Under the pieces are notes generated by a model. The model had not been told where the DNA came from. It worked only from the letters and a program-made list of their open reading frames with translations, and did not search any database. Shown here piece after piece: positions 27,378-45,462 of a stretch of 64,000 bases of DNA; the stretch's first letter is position 1; each line of letters begins with the position of its first letter. The position numbers and the translations under genes are program-made. The stretch is from a virus, in the IMG/VR virus record IMGVR_UViG_642555139_000003. One strand, given 5' to 3'.

Positions 27378-27561
27378 CGCGTGATCTCCGAGCGACGGTG
27401 ATGATTGCGACGCCGCCGAGATCGACCCAGGAAGTGGGGGGCGCCTGATCGATCCCGGCGGCGGCACCCGCATCGGCGGTACCCGATCGCGGATCGACAC
27501 CTCGCAGCCTCAGCCTTGGGAGGCCGTCCCAGCTTCAGCAACGCCGTGCGCCGATGCAGAC

Positions 27562-27590
27562 AGATCGCCACACGTTCGATGAATAGTCAA
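27562..27590 (-). promoter_or_regulatory. Candidate leftward (late) promoter
   Basis: Minus strand TTGACT-N17-CGATCT, overlapping a TATTCATCG operator-like half-site. Confidence 0.35.
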
Positions 27591-27601
27591 CAACAGCGCT
27601 G

Positions 27602-27817
27602 GCGCGGTCGCAGATTTGTCGCGCACGCTGATGGCCGCATTTTTCCGACGACCTTCGCCGAAAACGACCCGCCCCGCCGGTCCTGGCCCCACTACCAAAA
27701 ACCTTAAACAGAGGGGCCAGGGGGTCTTGTGGGCATGCGGGGAGGGGCGTGTGCGCGTGCGCTCGCGTGCTGGGACCGCGCGGAGCTGGGCGCGAGCGCG
27801 GTTGCAGATTTCTCGCG
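27602..27817. repeat. Direct repeat pair (27602-23, 27796-817) flanking an 8-bp inverted repeat (27683-27720); candidate cos/packaging region
   Basis: GCGCGGTCGCAGATTTGTCGCG vs GCGCGGTTGCAGATTTCTCGCG (20/22). CTGGCCCC-N22-GGGGCCAG with an A-rich spacer. Confidence 0.55.
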
Positions 27818-27835
27818 GCGTGGCGTGATTGCCGC

Positions 27836-27864
27836 TTGCAACCTGCAACGCGTTGTGGCCTAGT
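27836..27864 (+). promoter_or_regulatory. Candidate sigma70 promoter for the accessory operon
   Basis: TTGCAA-N17-CCTAGT, ending 9 nt upstream of the first hairpin. Confidence 0.5.
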
Positions 27865-27919
27865 CGTCATCAGCGGCGCGCATCGGCGGGCCGCCCGACC
27901 AGGTGAAAGTCTCCTCCCC

Positions 27920-28153
27920 ATGATCCACCACACGAACGACACGCCGCGGGGCCGCTACCACATCGCCCGTCAGGTCCGGCGCGCTACGGGCGCCCTGGTC
28001 ACGCTGATGGCGGCGGGCGCCACGCCTGCAGACGTCGCCGCCTTCGTCCTCCGCCAGCAACCGGCCGCTTCGATCAATCTGAGCTGGCGCATCGAGGATG
28101 CCGCCCATGACGGCACGTTCGCCGCGGCCGTCTTCGACATCCTCGCCAACTGA
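27920..28153 (+). CDS. Small hypothetical early protein (77 aa)
   Basis: ATG 27920 preceded by the hairpin motif. Confidence 0.7.
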   Translation: MIHHTNDTPRGRYHIARQVRRATGALVTLMAAGATPADVAAFVLRQQPAASINLSWRIEDAAHDGTFAAAVFDILAN

Positions 28154-28221
28154 GGGGCCCCGGCCCCTCTCCCCTCCACGGGCCGCATCGGCGGCCCGCT
28201 CTCCAGACGAAAGCCCGCCCC

Positions 28222-28455
28222 ATGCTCACCATCCAACCCCGCTCCGCCTCCGCCGCCGCGCCTGCCGGTGCGCTTCCCGCAGATGGCGCCGTGATCGTCT
28301 TCGACGTCGTGCCCGTGGCGTCCTGGGCTTCCCCGGGCGTGGCGTACCGCGTGGAGCGGCAAGGCCGGGAGTTCCGGTTTCAGAACGTCCGCACCGGCTC
28401 CGCCACGTTCGACCGCGATTGGGCGGTCGCGCGCTCCAGCTGGCGGGCCGCGTGA
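28222..28455 (+). CDS. Small hypothetical early protein (77 aa)
   Basis: ORF preceded by the hairpin motif. Confidence 0.7.
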   Translation: MLTIQPRSASAAAPAGALPADGAVIVFDVVPVASWASPGVAYRVERQGREFRFQNVRTGSATFDRDWAVARSSWRAA

Positions 28456-28538
28456 TGCTCGGCGGTCTCGCCTTCCTCTTCGTCTGCGCGGCCGTCGCCG
28501 TCGCCCTCACGGCTGCAGGCGTCTTCATCGACCCGTGA
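28455..28538 (+). CDS. Very small single-TM peptide (27 aa)
   Basis: GTGATG overlap with the previous stop; hydrophobic MLGGLAFLFVCAAVAVALTAAGVFIDP. Confidence 0.45.
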   Translation: MLGGLAFLFVCAAVAVALTAAGVFIDP

Positions 28539-28632
28539 TGCGAGCAACCACGGCGCCCATGCGGTGCCGTGTCTCCCGCACCATGCGGGCCCGGCGCATC
28601 GGCGCCCGGCATCCCTGATGAAAGGTGTTCCC

Positions 28633-28776
28633 ATGTCCCGCACCGAGAACCGCGCCGCCCCCGCGTCCGCCCCGCGCCTCCCGTTCGGCAAGCGTCCCGA
28701 AGGCCGGGAGCGCCGCGACCAGCGCCGCGCCGCCCGCTCCGCCAAGGAGTCGTTTCTCCGCTCCGGGCGCGCCTGA
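28633..28776 (+). CDS. Arg-rich peptide (47 aa)
   Basis: GAAAGG SD and hairpin upstream; contains KRPEGRERRDQRRAARSAK. Confidence 0.65.
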   Translation: MSRTENRAAPASAPRLPFGKRPEGRERRDQRRAARSAKESFLRSGRA

Positions 28777-28853
28777 GCGTCCGGCCCCTTCCCTCGAAAA
28801 CCTAGCCTCACGGCGCCCGCATCGGCAGGCGCCCGCAACCCGGAGAAATCCCC

Positions 28854-29783
28854 ATGCTCACGACGTCCGCCGCTCTCGCCGCTCCCGCCCCCGTCGCTGC
28901 CCCGTCGCTGCTCTCCACCCGCGCCATGCTGCGCGGCGTGCGCATCTCGATGTGGGACGGGCGCAAGCATGATCGCGCCATCAGCGACGAGGTGAACCGC
29001 GCCAAGGGCGCCGCCGCCGACGCGGGCCGCTTTAACAAGGCCCTTGTGCCCGCCGAAGCGTTGAAGCCGGTGCAGGCTGCCGCGGGCCGCGTCCGGGCCG
29101 TGCATGCCCGCTACACGCTGCCATGGACGGATAACGGCCTCGACATCCTGCCGGCTGCCGCGGTCGTCGACTATGACCGGGAGATGCGGGCCGCCCGCGC
29201 CGAGTTCGAGGCGGCGGCGGACGTGTTCTGCAACATGGTCTTCCCCGGCCTGCTGCTGTCCGCGCCGGCCCGCTTAGGCGACATGTTCCGTGCCTCCGAC
29301 TATCCCGACGCGAGCGAGATCCGCGACCGCTTCAGCATGCGCGTCCGGACGCTGAACATGCCCGACGCGCGCGACTTCCGAGTCGACATGTCGGACGCTC
29401 AGGCCCGCGCGATCCGCGCCGAGCTGGAGGCCGAGTCCCGCGCCGCCCTCGCCGAAGCCATGGAGTCCGCGTGGCAACGCGTGGCGGACGTTTGCGGGCG
29501 CATGGTGGAGAGGCTGAACGCCTACAAGCCGGCGACGATGAAGGGTGAGAAGTCGGAAGGCGTCTTCCGCGACTCCCTGGTCGAAAACGTCCGCGACCTG
29601 GTCGCCGTCCTGCCGGCCTTCAACCTCACGAACGACCCGACGCTTGCGGACGTGTCGGAGCGCATGCGCGCCGAGCTGTGCAAGGCCGATGCAGCGGAGC
29701 TGCGCGACGACGTGGCGCTTCGGGAGCGCACGGCAGCGGCAGCCGCCGAGATCCACGCGATTGCGTCCGACTTCCTCGCCTGA
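28854..29783 (+). CDS. DUF3150-like helical protein (partner of the MoxR/vWA module)
   Basis: TLPWTDNG, RLGDMFRASDYPDASEIRDRF and FRDSLVEN motifs recalled from this family; GGAG SD. Confidence 0.65.
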   Translation: MLTTSAALAAPAPVAAPSLLSTRAMLRGVRISMWDGRKHDRAISDEVNRAKGAAADAGRFNKALVPAEALKPVQAAAGRVRAVHARYTLPWTDNGLDILPAAAVVDYDREMRAARAEFEAAADVFCNMVFPGLLLSAPARLGDMFRASDYPDASEIRDRFSMRVRTLNMPDARDFRVDMSDAQARAIRAELEAESRAALAEAMESAWQRVADVCGRMVERLNAYKPATMKGEKSEGVFRDSLVENVRDLVAVLPAFNLTNDPTLADVSERMRAELCKADAAELRDDVALRERTAAAAAEIHAIASDFLA

Positions 29784-29869
29784 CGCTGCGGCCCCTTGGC
29801 GGCCCGGCGCTGGAGCCGGGCCGCGCGGGGGCCGCATCGGCGGCCCGCTCCCCATGAAAGGCGAAGACT

Positions 29870-30913
29870 ATGAATCTGCATACCGCCCTGTCCGCCCTGT
29901 CCGAAGCGCTCAAGGCCAACATCCCGGTGATGCTCCACGGCGCGCCCGGCATCGGCAAAACCGACGGAATCGAGTCGACCGCTGCCGGCATCAAGCTGCC
30001 CTGCCTCACTGAGGTGCTTGCGACGATGGAAGCCGTCGACCTGCGCGGCCTCCCCTGCATCACGGGCGACTCCGTGTCCTGGTCGAAGCCCGACTTTCTG
30101 GCGCGCCTCGAGCGCATGGGCCCGGAAGGCGTGCTTTTCATCGACGAGGCGAACAGCAATGCGCAGTCGGTGCAAGTCCCGCTCATGCAGCTGGCATGGA
30201 AGCGCCAGATTGGCCCGCATGAGATCCCGACCGGCTGGCGCATCGTCATGGCGGGCAACCGGCAGTCCGATCGCGCCGCCGCGCAGCGCATGGGTACGGC
30301 GCTGGCGAACCGCTTGCTGCACCTCGATATCGATCCGCCCAACTCTCAGGACGACGTGCGCGCATGGGCGAAATGGGCCGCGGGCGCGCAGATTCACCCG
30401 ATGGTAATTGCGTTCATCATGCTCCGCGGCGGCCCGAACGGCGTGCAGGGCGCGCCGGGCTATCAACCCGGCCTGCTCTTCGACTTCCGGCCGGACGACG
30501 CGAACGCCCGCGCCTTCCCGACCCCGCGCGCATGGTCTCAGGTGTCCAAGATCGCGGATGCGCCCGACGCGGTGCGGCTGCACCTGGTCGCCGGCCTCGT
30601 CGGTGAAAAGGCCGCGTGCGAGTTCGAAGGCTTCGTGCAGGTCTACCGTTCCGCTCCGCCGGTGCTGTCCATCATCGCCAACCCGGCCGGCGCGCCCGTC
30701 CCGACACAACCGGGTGTGCAGTACGCTGTTTCGCTGGCGCTGGCACGGGCCGCCAACGCGGGCAACTTCTCTGCGGTGCTTCAGTACGTCCGCCGCGTCG
30801 GGCGTGAGTTCGAGATCGTGACGGCGACCGACGCCATCCGCCGCAACCCGGACCTTACCGATACTTCCGCCTTCATCGATTGGGCGGCCCGCAACAGCGA
30901 TGTGACCATCTGA
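29870..30913 (+). CDS. MoxR-like AAA+ ATPase
   Basis: Walker A GAPGIGKT, Walker B LFIDEAN, AGNR, and PTPRAW. Confidence 0.9.
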   Translation: MNLHTALSALSEALKANIPVMLHGAPGIGKTDGIESTAAGIKLPCLTEVLATMEAVDLRGLPCITGDSVSWSKPDFLARLERMGPEGVLFIDEANSNAQSVQVPLMQLAWKRQIGPHEIPTGWRIVMAGNRQSDRAAAQRMGTALANRLLHLDIDPPNSQDDVRAWAKWAAGAQIHPMVIAFIMLRGGPNGVQGAPGYQPGLLFDFRPDDANARAFPTPRAWSQVSKIADAPDAVRLHLVAGLVGEKAACEFEGFVQVYRSAPPVLSIIANPAGAPVPTQPGVQYAVSLALARAANAGNFSAVLQYVRRVGREFEIVTATDAIRRNPDLTDTSAFIDWAARNSDVTI

Positions 30914-30926
30914 GGGGGGCGGCACC

Positions 30927-32207
30927 ATGCGAGTCCAGGATCTTCCCGCGGCGGCGCGCATCACCCGCGCCCGCTCTCAGCTGGTCACCAATCCGGCTTA
31001 CGCGTTCTTCGGGACGCTGGCGCTTTCACTCCGAATCGTGGAGGCGCCCGACCGCACCGACACGATGGCGGTTGACGGGACGTCGCTGTTCTACGCTCCG
31101 GCCTTCGTCGAGTCCCTGTCCGAAGCTCACCTGCTAGGCGTGGTCGCCCATGAGGTGATGCACCTTGCCACGCTGCATCACGTGCGGCGTGCGGGGCGCG
31201 ATCCGGCGGATTGGAACCGGGCCTGTGATTTCGCCATCAATCCCGGATTGCGCGCCGCGGGCCTGAGCCTGCCGCCCGGCGGATGCGAGTCCGCCGACTT
31301 CGCCGGCATGGGGGCGGAGGCGATTTTCGCCGAGCTGCAGCGGCGCAAGCCTCAGTCTCCGCCGCCCGCTCAGGACGACCAGGACGGCGACCAGGACGAC
31401 AGCGGCGGCCCGGAGGCCGGCGCACGCGGCCCAGACGGCGACCAGGACGCGGACGGCGCCGAGCAAGGCGACCAGCCTGCCGGCGCGGGCGCCGTGTCAC
31501 CCGATCCGGGCGGATGCGGCGGCGTGATTGATGCGCCGACCGATGCGGGCACGATGGCGGAGCAAGCTGCCGAGATGGAGTCTCGCGTCCGGCAGGCTAT
31601 CAGCGTTGCCCGCGCCGCTCAGGCCGGCAACCTGCCGGGCTTTCTCGCCGGCCTCGTCGACCAGCTGAACGCACCGCGGGTGAACTGGCGCGACGAGCTG
31701 GCGGCGTTCATCGACGATGCCGCGACGCGCACCGCGTCATGGGCCCGGCCAAACAAGCGATTCCTTGCCTCCGGGTTTTTCCTTCCCGGCAGCATCGCCG
31801 ATTCAGTGTCCTGCATCGGAGTCGCCGTCGACACGTCCGGCAGCATCTACGGCGCCCCTAAGGTGCTGGAAGCGTTCCGCGACGAGATCCAGGGCATGCT
31901 CGATAGCGGGCGCGTGGAGCGTGTGCACATCGTGCATTGTGACCAGTCGGTGCAAGGCGTGCAGGACTTCGCTGCGGGCGACGTCGTCGACCTGCGGCCC
32001 CTTGGCGGCGGCGGCACGGCGTTCTCTCCGGCCTTCCGACACTTCGCCGAGCAAGCGCCGGACGTGGCTGCAATCGTCTACCTCACCGACCTGGAATGCT
32101 GCGACTTCGGCAGTGAGCCGGACGTGCCGGTTTTATGGGCCGCATGGGGCCGCTACCGCCCGGCGCTGCCGTTCGGACGCCTGATACCGGTTGATCCGCA
32201 CGCCTGA
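30927..32207 (+). CDS. DUF2201-like HExxH metallopeptidase + vWA domain protein
   Basis: HEVMH, MIDAS DTSGS, GGGGT..PAF and YLTD motifs; follows the MoxR gene. Confidence 0.88.
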   Translation: MRVQDLPAAARITRARSQLVTNPAYAFFGTLALSLRIVEAPDRTDTMAVDGTSLFYAPAFVESLSEAHLLGVVAHEVMHLATLHHVRRAGRDPADWNRACDFAINPGLRAAGLSLPPGGCESADFAGMGAEAIFAELQRRKPQSPPPAQDDQDGDQDDSGGPEAGARGPDGDQDADGAEQGDQPAGAGAVSPDPGGCGGVIDAPTDAGTMAEQAAEMESRVRQAISVARAAQAGNLPGFLAGLVDQLNAPRVNWRDELAAFIDDAATRTASWARPNKRFLASGFFLPGSIADSVSCIGVAVDTSGSIYGAPKVLEAFRDEIQGMLDSGRVERVHIVHCDQSVQGVQDFAAGDVVDLRPLGGGGTAFSPAFRHFAEQAPDVAAIVYLTDLECCDFGSEPDVPVLWAAWGRYRPALPFGRLIPVDPHA

Positions 32208-32253
32208 CGCGAGCGGGGGCGATCCGCAGCCCGCTCCGCGTGCGCAGAGACTT

Positions 32254-32298
32254 AACGGGCCGGGCTCATAGTGCAGCCGGCCCGTTTCTAGGCATTTC
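32254..32298 (+). terminator. 10-bp hairpin after the vWA gene; possible intrinsic terminator
   Basis: AACGGGCCGG-N13-CCGGCCCGTT followed by a weakly T-rich tail. Confidence 0.5.
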
Positions 32299-32353
32299 TC
32301 CCATGCCGGGCTGCAGCATGGACGCAGCCGGCACGCAACAGGACGGAGGACGT

Positions 32354-32944
32354 ATGGACGGCATCGGATCGCTGGCGACCATCATGCTCAGCGGCGTGGT
32401 TGCCGCTGTATCAACCTACGCGCTCAACTCATCGAAAGAGCATGTCTTTCACAGACGGACGAAAGCGGAGGAACTCTACAAGGCCTTTGACGGATGGCAG
32501 GCCAGCCTTTTGGATTAGTACATGCGCAGGGAGATGATGATTAAAGGCCAGATGACATATAACGATGTCATCGAAGCTGATCTTAAGGCAGACAAGCACA
32601 ACGGCGAGTGGCGAGACATGCGGATGCTGCTTGGCATCTACTTCCCGCAGCTAGGCCCGGAGTTCGACGGGATTATCCTTCGTCGCACTAACATGAATGC
32701 GGTGCTCCTGAAAATCATGCGAGCCTACCGCGAGCACCCCTCTTTCCCCCACGGGCATGAGCCGGAGAGCCGCCTGTTCAGCAACGAGTTCTCCGCGATC
32801 ATCAAGGAACTGGACGGTTTCCGCGATGCGATCGTGAGAGAGGCCTCGGCCATCGCGAGCGCCGACGCGCTCATGCCGGCATGGATGATCAGGGCGCAGC
32901 AGCAAACGCGAAAAATGTTCAACCGAAAGCCCGTCAGGTCATAA
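32354..32944 (+). pseudogene. Moron-like gene (N-terminal TM + helical domain) with an in-frame TAG at 32516-18
   Basis: ORFs 32354-32518 and 32522-32944 are in the same frame, separated by TAG TAC. GGAGG SD; lower GC. Confidence 0.7.
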
Positions 32945-32951
32945 ACAGGCG

Positions 32952-32984
32952 TTGACGCACCACCGCGTTGACGTTTATCCATCA
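32952..32984 (+). promoter_or_regulatory. Candidate promoter (tandem TTGACG) with a TATCCATCA operator half-site over the -10 region
   Basis: TTGACG at 32952 and 32968; TATCCATCA at 32976-84; the hairpin begins at 32991. Confidence 0.5.
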
Positions 32985-33035
32985 ATACCGGACGCGCATT
33001 GGCGTGTCTCGGCCAACCCGATGAAAGGACTTCAC

Positions 33036-34190
33036 ATGATCCGCAACGTCTCCGCCGACCTGTTCCGCATCGTTGCCGCGTACCGTTCCACCGACGATTC
33101 CCGGTTCTATCTGCAAGGCGTTTACGTGCAGCCCCATCCCTGCGGCGGGGCCTACCTCGTGGCGACGGACGGGCACCGCATGCTCGTGGTCTACGATGCC
33201 TCCGCCGAGTGCACCGAGGCCGCTATCATCGCGTGCCCGTCCGATCTCCTCCGGGCTGCCAAGTCGAAGCCGGTTCGGCAGCGTCGGCGCGGTACCGCCG
33301 CGCAGGACGGCGAGCCGATGGGCCCGCGCATGCTGGCAGTTATCGAAGACCAGGCGATAATTTCCTGCGACGGATTCGAGGTGCATCGCGGCGGTGCGCC
33401 GGCCGTCATCGACGGCACCTTCCCGGACTGGCGCCGGACCGTGCCGACGATCGACGCCGTGCCGGCGGCGGAGCGCTCGCTCTCGCCCGCGTTCGCCCCT
33501 GCCTACCTGGAGGCCTTCGGAGAGACCGGCCGGGCGCTGTCCGAGCACTTCGACACGAGTGCCCCGGTGCGAATCGTCTCCTGCGGACAGAGCGCGGCCC
33601 TCGTGCTCTTCGACAACTGCCGGGAGGCATTCGGCGTGCTGATGCCGATGCGGAGCATGGCCCCGACCGCGCTGCCGGCCTTCCTCGATGCGCGCCCGTT
33701 CGCCGAGCCGCGAGTGCAGGTCTCGCCCGTCGAGCGGTCCAACGTCTACGGGCGCGATAGCGACAGCTGGGGCTTCACCGTCACCACGACCCGATCGGAG
33801 CTGCACTTACCGGAGGCGCGGCAGTTCGCGTTCTCCACTGAGGCCGCGGCCAAGCGCGCTTACATGGCGCTCCGGAAGAAGCTGGCGAAGCGCGGCGTCC
33901 GCGCGCTGCCGGAGAAGTACCGCCCGGCGATCGCACTCGGCGACGCGTACCTCGAGGCGCTGAAGGAGCGGGCCGCGGCCATCGCGGATGCACGCGAAGC
34001 CTTCCAGGCGGTGGAAGACGTGGAGCTGGAGGCGCCGTGGCGCCGGGCCATGGTCGTGCGCAGCATGGCGCCACTGCCGGCATGGGAATCGCCCGTGATC
34101 GTCGCTGCTGCGACCGAGGCCGCGTTCCGCCGCCTGCCGGCGCGGTCCGAGGCCGCCGCCCTCGCCAACGTCTACCGTCTAGCCGCCTGA
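33036..34190 (+). CDS. DNA polymerase III beta-clamp-like protein with C-terminal extension
   Basis: RFYLQGVY, ATDGHRM and GTFPDWRRTVP match DnaN middle-domain motifs. Confidence 0.75.
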   Translation: MIRNVSADLFRIVAAYRSTDDSRFYLQGVYVQPHPCGGAYLVATDGHRMLVVYDASAECTEAAIIACPSDLLRAAKSKPVRQRRRGTAAQDGEPMGPRMLAVIEDQAIISCDGFEVHRGGAPAVIDGTFPDWRRTVPTIDAVPAAERSLSPAFAPAYLEAFGETGRALSEHFDTSAPVRIVSCGQSAALVLFDNCREAFGVLMPMRSMAPTALPAFLDARPFAEPRVQVSPVERSNVYGRDSDSWGFTVTTTRSELHLPEARQFAFSTEAAAKRAYMALRKKLAKRGVRALPEKYRPAIALGDAYLEALKERAAAIADAREAFQAVEDVELEAPWRRAMVVRSMAPLPAWESPVIVAAATEAAFRRLPARSEAAALANVYRLAA

Positions 34191-34246
34191 GGAAGTCGGA
34201 TCGGTCGCGCCCGCCGCTGAGCGGGCGCAGCCGTCCGGTGCGCGCC

Positions 34247-34567
34247 ATGATGCACGACACATTCCCCCACACCCATGATGCGGCTGTCGAGTTCGAGCCG
34301 CTGACCATCGCCATCGACCGTGTGGCCGCCGGCATCGCTCGGACTGCCGCCGACCAGCGCCGGCCCGGCAGCGACTATCTGCGCAACCCGCCGCTGACGA
34401 CCCGAGAACGCGAATGGGCCGCTCGCGCCCGCCTCGCTGCGCGCCTCCTGGAGGTGCTCGCCAACGCCGACGGCGACGACGTGCTCTCGCCCTCGCTCGA
34501 TCCGGCCCTGGTCGCCTTGCGCGCCATCGTGGCCGACGCCGACCGCGCCCCGTCCCCCCGCTGCTGA
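34247..34567 (+). CDS. Hypothetical protein
   Basis: Same-strand ORF filling the operon gap. Confidence 0.55.
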   Translation: MMHDTFPHTHDAAVEFEPLTIAIDRVAAGIARTAADQRRPGSDYLRNPPLTTREREWAARARLAARLLEVLANADGDDVLSPSLDPALVALRAIVADADRAPSPRC

Positions 34568-35395: not shown

Positions 35396-35881
35396 GTGGA
35401 CATTCTGACGACCACGGATCTGAAGGCCCTGCGGCTGCTTCTGGGCCTGTCGCCGGCGGAGGCCGCGGCCATGATCGATGAGCCGAAGGACTGGCTGGTC
35501 GACGCGGAGCGTGGACGCAGCTGGAATATCTCGCCGAAGTACCGCGACTTCCTCCTGCGCATGGAGGAGGTGGTGCAGACCTTCATCGATTGGGTCGAGA
35601 CCACGCCCGGCCGGTTCATCATCGTATACTCTAACGAGGACGTGTTCCGGGACTATGACCCGGTGTGGGCCGCGAAGTTTCCGACGGCGCTGATGCACCT
35701 TCAGGCAGCCTCGCGCGCCGTCTCGACGCTGGGCAACCGGCAGCTCAACATCGTGACGCTCTTCCCGAAGGCCTTCGAGGAGTACCTGCAGCACACCGGC
35801 AAGGCTGACTCGCCGGACGTGCGGCAGAGCTGGGCAGAGGCCTTCAGCGCCAATTACCGAACCATGGGAGCGAAGCGTTGA
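35396..35881 (+). CDS. Aca2/YdiL (DUF1870)-like HTH regulator
   Basis: GTG start after GGAGG. TTTDLKALRLLLGLSPAEAAAMI...AERG and IIVYSNEDVFRDYDP..HLQAASRA resemble the Aca2/YdiL pattern. Confidence 0.65.
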   Translation: MDILTTTDLKALRLLLGLSPAEAAAMIDEPKDWLVDAERGRSWNISPKYRDFLLRMEEVVQTFIDWVETTPGRFIIVYSNEDVFRDYDPVWAAKFPTALMHLQAASRAVSTLGNRQLNIVTLFPKAFEEYLQHTGKADSPDVRQSWAEAFSANYRTMGAKR

Positions 35882-43243: not shown

Positions 43244-43722
43244 GCAGCGAACCTGCACTCATCCGGCAGGCGCCGCGCAGTGCGGCACATCCACCACCGA
43301 TTCCGCGCCCACTTCACGGTGCCACCCCAGACGTCGAACAGCTCGCCCTCGAACTCGACGACGTCGTGATAGGCGAGGCGGGTCTCGACCCTATCCCACT
43401 GCTCGTAGGCGCCGGGTTCGGTGGCGCGCAGGCGGCCCTGCCCATCCCGCCACAGCTTGCTCCATGGACGCAGAACGTAGGGGCGCAGGTAGAAGATGAC
43501 GGTCCGGATGTAGCAGCAGAACGGCTGAGCGAGCGCGGGGGAGGGCGCCTTGGTCCGCAGCGGCTCCCAGATCACCAGGCGCCACGGCGCCGGCCGCACG
43601 ACGAGACAGTCGCCGAGGTCGACGAGACCCGCCCTCTCCCGGCCGGCATAGGTCGACACCTCGGTGAGGCCGAGCACCCCGCAGGGTGCCCGCTCCTCCG
43701 CGTCGAGCCGACGCCGGCTCAC
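43240..43722 (-). CDS. Hypothetical protein
   Basis: Overlapping stop/start at both ends. Confidence 0.6.
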   Translation of the reverse strand: MSRRRLDAEERAPCGVLGLTEVSTYAGRERAGLVDLGDCLVVRPAPWRLVIWEPLRTKAPSPALAQPFCCYIRTVIFYLRPYVLRPWSKLWRDGQGRLRATEPGAYEQWDRVETRLAYHDVVEFEGELFDVWGGTVKWARNRWWMCRTARRLPDECRFAA

Positions 43723-44849
43723 TGCCTCAGCTCCTTCAGGCCCTTCCCGAGCAGATGCCCCTGAGCCTCAGACCACTTGTCGTTCCAGGCCTGATGGCAC
43801 TGGTCGTTCTCGTCCGGATAGGGGTTCGAGCTCTTGTCAGCGCCGCGGTAGCCGGCGCGATAGCCCTCTTCGCGAGCGTGGGCGAGGCGCTTCTCGTGCG
43901 TGTCGCGATCCTCCTCGCCGAAGATGTGGATGTGGCCGGCGGCCGGCAGGTGCACGGCGCGGCGATAGTCGTTCTCGCGGTTGATGCTGTCGGTCAGCTC
44001 GTCGGGCGACATGCGCAGCTCGTCGAGGATCTTGTTCAGCACCTTCGGATCGACGCCGTCGTCCTTGGCCTTCTTCATCTTCTCGCGGAGCTTGCCCGTC
44101 GCGGAGGCCACCGCCTCCTTCGCAGCGCGGATCACGCCAACGTGCCGAAGGATGGTCATCTCCGAGACGCCGCCGTTGTCGCCCTTGCGGAGCATCTTCT
44201 TCGGGAGCGGAGCCTCCTCCTCGTCCGCCGCGGCCTGCGCGTGCGCGAACCCGTCGGACGGCCGGGCGGCGCGACCTCCGGACGCCTCGCGGAACTCGGT
44301 CATGTGGTGCGCGTGATCTGCGGCCTTGCGCTGCGCGGCCTTCGAGGTCAGGGGCTTGCCGCCGTTCACCGGCTCGGTGGAGACGCGCTGCACCGGGAAG
44401 ACCTCGCCGAGCGGATCCTTTGAGCCGACGAGGCGCACGCGGACGTTCTTGGCATCCTCGATCTTCAGGAGGGTGCCGCTCTTCTCGGTCTGATTCCGCT
44501 TCGTGCCGAACCGGACGATCGCCGGATCGCCGACAATGACGGGCTGCCCGTTGAAGCCGAGCACGTCCTCCGCGGTCGCACCGCCGGATGCTTCGCGCTC
44601 CAGCGCTTCCTCCGCAGCCCGCGTTTCGGCGGCTCGCTCGCGCGCGACGCGCTGGTGCGGGGCCTCTTCGTCTTCCTGGAAATCGTCGTCGCCCGGCTCT
44701 GGCTGGTCCGCCGGCAGAGCGGACGGATCGGGAACTGCTTCGGAGGAGGTAGCTGCAGAGCGGGGGCGACGGAGGAACTCGGGGATGTCGCCGGCATCCC
44801 CCTCGATGTGTTGAGCGTCAGTCGTCGGATTCGTTGCTCTGTCGGTCAT
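43719..44849 (-). CDS. Multidomain protein: acidic N-terminus, GapR/DUF2312-like domain, Rmf-like C-terminus
   Basis: KAKDDGVDPKVLNKIL...DYRRAV (GapR-like) and EEGYRAGY..NPYP...QAWNDKW (Rmf-like). Confidence 0.6.
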   Translation of the reverse strand: MTDRATNPTTDAQHIEGDAGDIPEFLRRPRSAATSSEAVPDPSALPADQPEPGDDDFQEDEEAPHQRVARERAAETRAAEEALEREASGGATAEDVLGFNGQPVIVGDPAIVRFGTKRNQTEKSGTLLKIEDAKNVRVRLVGSKDPLGEVFPVQRVSTEPVNGGKPLTSKAAQRKAADHAHHMTEFREASGGRAARPSDGFAHAQAAADEEEAPLPKKMLRKGDNGGVSEMTILRHVGVIRAAKEAVASATGKLREKMKKAKDDGVDPKVLNKILDELRMSPDELTDSINRENDYRRAVHLPAAGHIHIFGEEDRDTHEKRLAHAREEGYRAGYRGADKSSNPYPDENDQCHQAWNDKWSEAQGHLLGKGLKELRQ

Positions 44850-45462
44850 CGGGGGCGCCCTGGTCGCTGGAGGGATCCCCGCCCTCACCAGATGCCCGCC
44901 GCTGGCGCGTGTTCCGGTAGGATTCGGGGCTGATTTTCCCCTGCTCCGCCAGGTTCATCGTCTCCGCGATCCGCTCCAAGCTGTCGATGCGGAACCCTTC
45001 GCCCTGCTTGATGCGCGCGATCAGGCGATGATCGTTCTTCCCGGCATAGAGCAGGGAGATCTCGCCCCAATCCTTATTGCGATCCAGGAACAGCTCCAGG
45101 TCCGCGAGGAACGCCTCAGCCACACGGTTCTTGTAGCCACCGTACTGCGGCTTGCCGTCCTGTCCCGCCATCTCGCGGATGCCTCGCTTGGTGTGACCTC
45201 GCGCAGACGCCAAACCTTCAGGCGTTGCAGAGTTGACGCCACCATGACCCGGTTTAATCGTCAACGCAAGGGAAAGCGTCACGCCATTCCCACCATTCGG
45301 CTTGAACTCGAATTGGTGGATCTCGGTGCCTTCCTCGATCTGGTTCGGCGCCGGGACGACGACATCCAGGGGATCATCCGGGTTGCTACCCGGCTCGCGC
45401 GTCACCTGATCCTTCGGCTGTGACGCCCCGATGATTTGTGAGTGGATGCCAGTCATAGGCAT
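44818..45462 (-). CDS. Cro-like HTH protein with N-terminal extension
   Basis: FLADLELFL...NDHRLIARIKQGEGFRIDSLERI resembles alphaproteobacterial phage Cro-like HTHs; GGGAG SD. Confidence 0.6.
   Translation of the reverse strand: MPMTGIHSQIIGASQPKDQVTREPGSNPDDPLDVVVPAPNQIEEGTEIHQFEFKPNGGNGVTLSLALTIKPGHGGVNSATPEGLASARGHTKRGIREMAGQDGKPQYGGYKNRVAEAFLADLELFLDRNKDWGEISLLYAGKNDHRLIARIKQGEGFRIDSLERIAETMNLAEQGKISPESYRNTRQRRASGEGGDPSSDQGAPDDRQSNESDD

Follow-up and report, generated by a model that had tools for sequence, protein, structure and literature searches.

A Methylobacterium-type prophage carries a repeated hairpin leader of the RNA type in front of its early genes. The prophage lies on a viral stretch of 64,000 nucleotides (nt) with a G+C content of 67% (virus record IMGVR_UViG_642555139_000003; the whole stretch is called the window below), and six copies of the hairpin stand before six early genes, all of them where a first-pass annotation made from the letters had placed them. 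The leader is a repeated start-associated phage signal of a kind already known from the SAS/ESAS motifs and the promoter-early stem-loop (PeSL) cassettes of other phages. New here is a covarying RNA-type hairpin leader, absent from Rfam, in a clade of alphaproteobacterial temperate phages. With a confidence that falls a little short of even, we read it from its sequence as a cis-acting leader cassette of the sense-strand RNA, which would protect the 5' end of the message, keep the ribosome site open and also act as a recombination linker.

Each leader spans about 45 nt and consists of a GC-rich hairpin, a C-rich linker of 5-13 nt, a Shine-Dalgarno sequence (GAAAGG or GGAGAA), a further 7-10 nt and the ATG. 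All copies are on the plus strand. Hairpin 1 (27873-27894, a 9-bp stem with one G-G mismatch) and hairpin 2 (28179-28198, a perfect 8-bp stem) precede two genes for 77-amino-acid (aa) proteins, which start at 27920 and 28222. Hairpin 3 (28589-28610, 9-bp stem with one mismatch) stands before the gene of a 47-aa arginine-rich protein (28633-28776) and hairpin 4 (28812-28833, 9-bp stem with one C-A mismatch) before that of a 309-aa protein starting at 28854. A MoxR-type AAA ATPase gene (phrog_1297, start 29870) follows hairpin 5 (29827-29848, a perfect 7-bp core), and the gene of a clamp-like 384-aa protein (start 33036) follows hairpin 6 (32988-33012), whose 8-bp stem includes G-U pairs and can be extended to 10 bp. 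The stems are about 7-10 bp long with at most one mismatch each. The loop is ATCG in hairpins 1 to 5 and ATTG in hairpin 6, and GC/GC pairs close it in all six, which bears out the earlier observation that loop and closing pairs are kept while the stems differ. In the first two rightward early operons, every gene with an intergenic spacer of its own has such a leader hairpin.

The distance from the loop to the ATG had been given as 33-38 nt, and counted from the loop start it measures 38, 35, 35, 33, 34 and 38 nt in copies 1 to 6, with 20-25 nt between the 3' end of the stem and the ATG. Since the stretch between the upstream stop codon and the stem ranges from 25 to 50 nt (counted from the sequence; copies 1 and 6 have no upstream gene), the position of the hairpin is fixed relative to the downstream start and not to the upstream stop. 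The GAAAG tract reported for five copies is present at 27905-27909 (copy 1), 28209-28213 (copy 2), 28620-28625 (copy 3, as GAAAGG), 29856-29861 (copy 5, as GAAAGG) and 33023-33029 (GAAAGGA, the ribosome site behind hairpin 6). Hairpin 4 is followed by CGCAACCCGGAGAAA, and its ribosome site at 28842-28848 reads GGAGAAA. We regard GAAAG(G) and GGAGAAA as Shine-Dalgarno sites because GAAAGGA is complementary to ...CCUCCUUUCU, which we take to be the 3' end of alphaproteobacterial 16S rRNA. Most linkers also hold an AAC(C) motif 1-6 nt before the ribosome site (e.g. 28834-28841 and 33016-33019); it is common to all lineages, also those with other hairpins, and is presumably not explained by pairing with this rRNA end. 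An upstream in-frame ATG inside ATGAAAGG was considered as the true start and rejected, since copies 1 and 2 lack it and in copy 5 it does not share the reading frame.

Hairpins as such are frequent in this DNA, with 5.9 per kb per strand when a loop of 4 nt and no fewer than 7 of 8 pairs are required. Those of this type with an ATYG loop (ATCG or ATTG) number only 15 in 128 kb (both strands), and 6 of these 15 lie 33-38 nt before a start codon, on one strand and within 5.2 kb. By our own arithmetic from the hairpin rate, about 0.05 such placements would be expected by chance over 59 gene starts. The string GCATYGGC occurred 27 times as compared to 14.6 expected. It is the combination of loop, closing pairs and position that goes beyond chance; the stability of the hairpin alone does not.

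To this we added a covariance model trained on 21 copies, from the window and its relatives, and scanned the window and six related loci with it (about 150 kb, both strands). The 21 copies scored 24-36 bits (32.9, 34.4, 28.0, 30.7, 36.0 and 29.9 for hairpins 1 to 6) and every other site 18.2 bits or less. All 21 were on the sense strand ahead of starts, no late gene was preceded by one, and the other 59 kb of the window held no model-scoring copy on either strand. The annotators had named equally frequent hairpins in coding DNA as the result that would speak against the element; given the gap in model scores, none of comparable score exists there.

The stems were further examined in a gap-free alignment of the same 21 copies, several rows of which are orthologues. 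In register, 81% of the cells pair, as compared to 36-50% when the partner is slid, and changes on both sides were found in 7 of the 10 stem pairs. The covariation score was 0.45 against 0.08-0.13, and no shuffle reached it. As G-U pairs outnumber A-C combinations by 11 to 2 in the stems, folding on the sense strand is favoured. Rfam gave no match for the whole window at gathering thresholds, nor on any hairpin when 27500-33200 was searched at E-values up to 5; an Rfam search and a search for covariation in homologous phages were among the checks proposed at the outset. Folding in a context of 140 nt predicted four of the six hairpins with a probability above 0.9. Three internal spacers also hold a second, unrelated hairpin directly after the upstream stop (28154-28167, 28549-28571 and 29800-29823), and in silico the arms of copies 3 and 5 can pair with the arms of this neighbour, an attenuator-like alternative.

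Relatives were found through homologues of the ATPase and are syntenic phage contigs from unrelated metagenomes. The closest (L001-L003, ATPase identity 85%) have the same module before orthologous genes and also before genes that the window lacks, and those at 65-69% ATPase identity (L004-L006, L143 and L144) have it with GATG-type loops. The model recovered two copies outside its training set, in L143 and L144, at 35-36 nt from starts. More distant syntenic contigs carry their own hairpin type at the same place, namely seven copies of GGCAATAGCGCC in L007, CCGGAACGATCCGG and others in L009 and L142, and GCGGCAACGCCGC in L010, in all four roughly 15-30 nt before an ATG. As judged from these sequences, the conserved trait is therefore the architecture, and the hairpin sequence is specific to the lineage. 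A seventh hairpin of the window (34207-34228, plus strand; 8-bp stem, 6-nt loop CGCTGA) ends 18 nt before the ATG at 34247, and by its layout it fits the leader architecture and falls outside the ATYG sub-family.

Comparison of orthologous copies showed that hairpin 1 is identical at 22 of 22 nt in the window, L001 and L003, whose flanks at this place are 70-75% identical, and that the linker and the spacer before the ATG diverge. We count this in favour of selection acting on the stem of hairpin 1. Orthologues were present in L001, L003 and L143 for hairpin 3, in L003 for hairpin 4 (L001, L004 and L143 have no hairpin there) and in L001 and L003 for hairpin 5, with compensatory stem changes; stem and loop of hairpin 6 are identical in the latter two phages. 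Orthologues of the seventh hairpin, likewise with a compensatory change, lie before the gene at 13287 in L001 and before that at 12289 in L003. The loop varies among orthologous copies in close relatives, from ATCG to GCTG at one gene and between GTGG and AATG at another.

Outside this group of contigs the searches were negative. Blastn of 27600-34200 against 50,697 phage records gave no match, and protein-guided scans of genome and viral contigs found only distant relatives without the motif. An exact pattern scan of viral contigs for loop core plus ribosome site returned 119 matches, only 2 of which had a stem of at least 7 pairs; none of the 119 scored with the model, and we discarded them as chance matches.

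The leaders also coincide with joints between related phages. Blastn homology of the window to L001 or L003 breaks off at module 1 (27909-27922). It sets in again at module 3 (28576-28601) and once more at the promoter of module 6 (32948-32951). Between L001 and L003 themselves, a 55-bp patch of promoter plus hairpin is the only shared sequence before two different genes.

Candidate promoters had been proposed at the first and the last copy. A promoter-like TTGCAA-17-CCTAGT (27836-27864, plus strand) ends 8 nt before hairpin 1, and TTGACG-17-TTATCC (32952-32980, plus strand) ends 7-9 nt before hairpin 6. Both arrangements are kept in L001 and L003, which makes the proposal plausible; a promoter scan called none at any of the six copies, its consensus being that of E. 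coli. Of the six copies, only 1 and 6 have promoter-like hexamers in front. Where a copy is promoter-proximal, in the window or in its relatives, the stem begins 6-10 nt past the -10-like hexamer, that is, about where transcription would be predicted to start. Four RNA-labelled sequencing runs consist of short Logan contigs of low depth, with at least two of the runs being probably DNA, and no transcript ends were seen in them.

The spacer of the promoter-like sequence before hairpin 1 contains a perfect 10-bp palindrome, CAACGCGTTG (27846-27855), and a copy with one mismatch lies before hairpin 6 (32961-32970). As the palindrome is conserved in the corresponding promoters of relatives (near 10400 in L001, near 10350 and 11040 in L003, near 4480 in L004), it is probably an operator. 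In L001, L004 and L143, which lack the hairpin before the 309-aa gene, a near copy, CTGCAACGCATTG, adjoins that gene's ribosome site. The otherwise rare CTAG is found 8-12 nt upstream of many hairpins, including internal ones (28800-28806 and 27860-27863 in the window, near 3215 in L143, near 4495 in L004, and before the first gene after the DUF2201 gene in L009 and L142). It may be part of a -10-like element, and some internal copies may have a weak promoter of their own.

What the sequences show directly is the anatomy of the leader with its conservation and covariation, the bias to one strand, the placement before the start codon and the breakpoints at the modules. On these we base the portable leader that we tentatively favour; its points of transcription start, a possible processing of the RNA, and its effects as stabiliser and insulator are inferred. 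The hairpin would act in cis and mostly passively. Whether it stands at a primary 5' end or, in internal copies, at one that a cut in the spacer would create, it would guard the message against 5'-end-dependent decay. By tying up neighbouring G+C-rich sequence it would leave the ribosome site single-stranded. In line with this, the ribosome-site region (-18 to +3) is predicted to be unpaired with a probability of 0.57 in the module genes and 0.40 in 44 other genes of the window (p = 8e-5), many of the latter being translationally coupled genes, which counts against taking the difference at face value. Since the same cassette precedes unrelated genes, it may also serve gene exchange between related phages, as a repeated patch of homology. 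Among the functions listed in the first-pass annotation, a signal that stabilises or processes the mRNA fits best, at the tentative level of the leader reading as a whole.

Several further points weigh against this reading as well. The folding energies of the six leaders are no better than those of dinucleotide shuffles (z from -0.6 to -2.0), and stability therefore cannot be used as evidence. The copies in the alignment were picked partly because they fold, and for copies 3 and 5 the 140-nt fold prefers pairings with the neighbouring upstream hairpin. Furthermore, 6 of 8 independent module positions retain ATCG and the GC/GC closing pairs in spite of differing stems, and a hairpin that is assumed to be passive leaves this conservation of the loop unexplained.

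The preferred loop is the main argument for a dedicated reader. The hairpins could be operators of one trans-acting RNA-binding factor, of phage or host, that reads the loop and the two closing pairs; it would switch all tagged early genes at once, in their translation or their decay. We consider this rather unlikely, even if several observations speak for it: loop and closing pairs persist over differing stems, each phage lineage has its own consensus, and the hairpin borders the ribosome-binding region on its 5' side, with 20-25 nt left to the ATG. One candidate binder is a product of the operon itself, the 47-aa arginine-rich protein, which is conserved and whose own gene is tagged. All lineages examined have it, and the gene has a hairpin in front wherever its leader was read, namely in the window, L001, L003, L007, L009, L010, L143 and L144. 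Precedents are T4 RegA or RegB on early messages and Aca2 on its 5' untranslated region (UTR) hairpins. Helix-turn-helix regulators bind 5' UTR hairpins of phage early operons (PMC13551039). Against a single reader stand the change of loop between close relatives, the seventh hairpin with its unrelated loop, and the sequence of the arginine-rich protein, which does not visibly follow the hairpin type. The claim of an operon-wide cis element read by one factor hence survives in its first half, as the element is recurrent, conserved and covarying; its second half suffers from a loop that is preferred and not fixed. A more specific form of the idea, which we hold to be less probable again, makes the hairpins tags that address a post-transcriptional regulon private to the phage: a small protein of the phage would read loop and closing pairs, translation, decay or read-through of the tagged genes would be switched together, and each lineage would have co-evolved its own tag. 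The best candidate for such a reader would be the tagged 47-aa peptide. This protein had no Pfam match, and its matches in the PDB were weak (E 0.04 or worse) and compositional, to the tail of a basic ribosomal protein. It shows a motif, G-K-R..G-R.R-R..R-R-A-A..A-K..F-L, that is kept in every related phage examined. One called gene set (L019) has a 70-aa form of it from GTG 28564, which would place hairpin 3 within coding sequence; the ATG at 28633 is supported by the homologues, which are 38-46 aa long. A proposed Aca2-like protein at 35396-35881 is not supported as binder, with no DUF1870/Aca2 signal and only a sub-threshold DUF4447 hit and a weak match to 2OX6.

Other explanations give the RNA leader a smaller role or none. 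The elements could matter mainly as DNA, as recombination linkers at gene boundaries with a secondary role in RNA, as for PeSLs, whose recombination has been demonstrated (PMC2839356). The homology breakpoints at modules 1, 3 and 6 and the 55-bp module that is all that L001 and L003 share before different genes agree with this, and so far the cassette-shuffling option of the first-pass annotation has a correlation on its side. As stems differ between copies in one genome, however, exact homology amounts to only about 8-12 nt per copy, a poor recombination substrate. Covariation and G-U bias point to a selected, folded sense strand, and recombination would not need a fixed spacing to the ribosome site. 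Having no account of these three features, a role in DNA only appears quite unlikely. We regard it as more improbable still that the hairpins are transcription signals, either antiterminator sites of the nut/boxB kind or leaky terminators that lack a U tract and would set graded levels of expression along the operon. Such signals would agree with GC-rich tetraloop hairpins between genes, with an arginine-rich peptide encoded nearby and with the terminator that appears to close the operon at 32256-32289, and PeSL stem-loops do terminate in reporter tests (PMC2839356). None of the six copies is followed by a U tract, though, and the terminator scan called none of them; copies 1 and 6 would terminate transcription right after their own promoters. 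No boxA-like partner was seen, and Rfam was silent. The boxB-like antitermination suggested earlier fits poorly, because the copies number one to a gene and are positioned by the ribosome site, and antiterminator sites normally come one per promoter. That we are looking at chance palindromes of GC-rich DNA or at host repeats of the repetitive extragenic palindrome (REP) type, with no function in the phage, is very improbable. The density of generic hairpins and the unexceptional energies are what this explanation has to offer; it does not account for six copies out of six that share strand, loop and distance to the start, for conservation with covariation in phages from unrelated samples, or for the lack of copies in the rest of the window. 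Mimics of CRISPR repeats were dismissed since the stems differ between copies, and an integron attC-like site, a long imperfect palindrome with extrahelical bases that marks the 3' end of cassettes beside an integron integrase, since the hairpins are 20-24 nt long, have hardly any mismatches and keep to the downstream start. The proteins scanned around the operon included no integrase.

Together with the PeSL cassettes, the nearest published analogue of the portable leader is the SAS/ESAS of Cluster K mycobacteriophages (2011, PMC3203893; survey of 2025, PMC12699233). There, too, a phage-specific motif that includes the ribosome site is repeated in one orientation just upstream of many non-structural gene starts, its consensus differs by subcluster, and it precedes genes of different families. 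ATG is preferred in these phages, and an inverted repeat lies immediately upstream in about half of the cases (PMC3203893; PMC12699233). The association with starts holds in our material, where all six copies of the window and, with the relatives, all 21 are on the sense strand with 20-25 nt from stem to ATG. The two differ in that the ESAS arms were judged by their authors to be unfit for RNA pairing and rather to be DNA-protein sites, whereas here the stems covary and are biased towards G-U. ESAS arms are 17 bp long and conserved in sequence; here stems measure 7-9 bp and are variable. Host phylum and sequences are unrelated, and the 13-bp SAS consensus was absent from the leaders that we read. 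By these comparisons the hairpin leaders are an analogue of SAS/ESAS and not a member.

T4-type phages likewise have composite intergenic elements, the PeSL cassettes (Arbiol et al. 2010, PMC2839356), which consist of stem-loop, ribosome site and ATG and are repeated before small variable early genes. These cassettes coincide with boundaries of insertion, deletion and replacement between related phages, and so do the modules of the window. Each PeSL has a strong sigma-70 promoter, however, as compared to promoter-like sequence at only 2 of our 6 copies, and its stem-loop is a terminator, whereas the hairpin here is part of a leader at a fixed distance from the ribosome site. No T run, as an intrinsic terminator would have, follows any of the copies.

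Other known systems share single features with the leaders. The RNase III sites of the T7 early operon are hairpins between consecutive early genes, and the cut ends stabilise individual messages. Those sites are conserved hairpins within one operon, as here, but are about 50 nt long with an internal loop, and our copies are also found at predicted transcript starts. A canonical RNase III substrate has about 20 bp, or about two helical turns, for which stems of 7-10 bp are too short. In 5'-terminal stem-loop stabilisers such as the ompA leader hairpin, only about 0-4 nt separate the RNA 5' end from the first base of the hairpin. The promoter-proximal copies would share this geometry if the predicted starts are right; stabilisers of this type are, however, single elements of single genes and form no repeated family with a preferred loop. 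Lambda boxB has a 5-bp stem and a GNRA-like pentaloop, pairs with boxA, and occurs once per early promoter without a tie to the ribosome site. A small hairpin in early transcripts and a phage-encoded arginine-rich peptide are common to the lambda nut boxB/N system and the prophage, but the window has six copies, four of them between genes, with 4-nt ATYG loops. The Aca2/Aca1 operators, 5' UTR hairpins of anti-CRISPR operons that are bound by a phage regulator (PMC13551039), resemble the leaders in being small, conserved and covarying and in belonging to early accessory operons of phages. They differ in number, with one or two hairpins per operon as compared to one per gene, and in sharing their sequence with an inverted repeat in the promoter. 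In the window the stems are variable and are not repeated in promoters, and no Aca-type protein was confirmed.

The late genes of the window, among them those for large terminase, portal and capsid and a 1644-aa open reading frame (ORF) of tape-measure size, are on the minus strand, and the early region runs rightward from near 27,900. A hydrophobic ORF of 27 codons (28455-28538), possibly a small membrane peptide, overlaps the second 77-aa gene at its stop codon, where the sequence reads TGATG. The ATPase gene is followed by a gene for a DUF2201 metallopeptidase/VWA protein that has no hairpin tag. Downstream of the latter, a terminator-like hairpin on the plus strand (32256-32289) with an 8-bp GC stem, a 13-nt loop and a TTTCT tail would, as read from the sequence, close the first operon; it was missed by the terminator scan because the scan takes loops of at most 8 nt. 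Behind it comes an insert of lower G+C content with ORFs at 32354-32518 and 32522-32944. Relatives lack this insert (32256-32944 region), and other genes occupy its place. Further to the right, a 389-aa protein (43719-44888, minus strand) has a motif like that of ribosome modulation factor (RMF) at its C-terminus, with a Pfam RMF E-value of 5e-5 that is below the family threshold, and a weak GapR-like match. The first early gene of L004 (4548-5393) gave a weak RMF match, too.

The SAS/ESAS and PeSL elements are start-associated signals of a few phage groups, and after more than ten years their function is still open. In the phages described here the upstream repeat is clearly an RNA-type hairpin, at a fixed distance to the ribosome site and with its own version in each sub-lineage. 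With six copies in 5 kb of one sequenced strain (CP001029.1), they offer a clean and small test system, which could tell apart stabilisation of the message, insulation of the ribosome site and reading by a phage factor. For phages of this clade the covariance model could moreover aid the assignment of start codons and of the limits of cassettes; as an example, it backs the 47-aa over the 70-aa form of the small basic protein.

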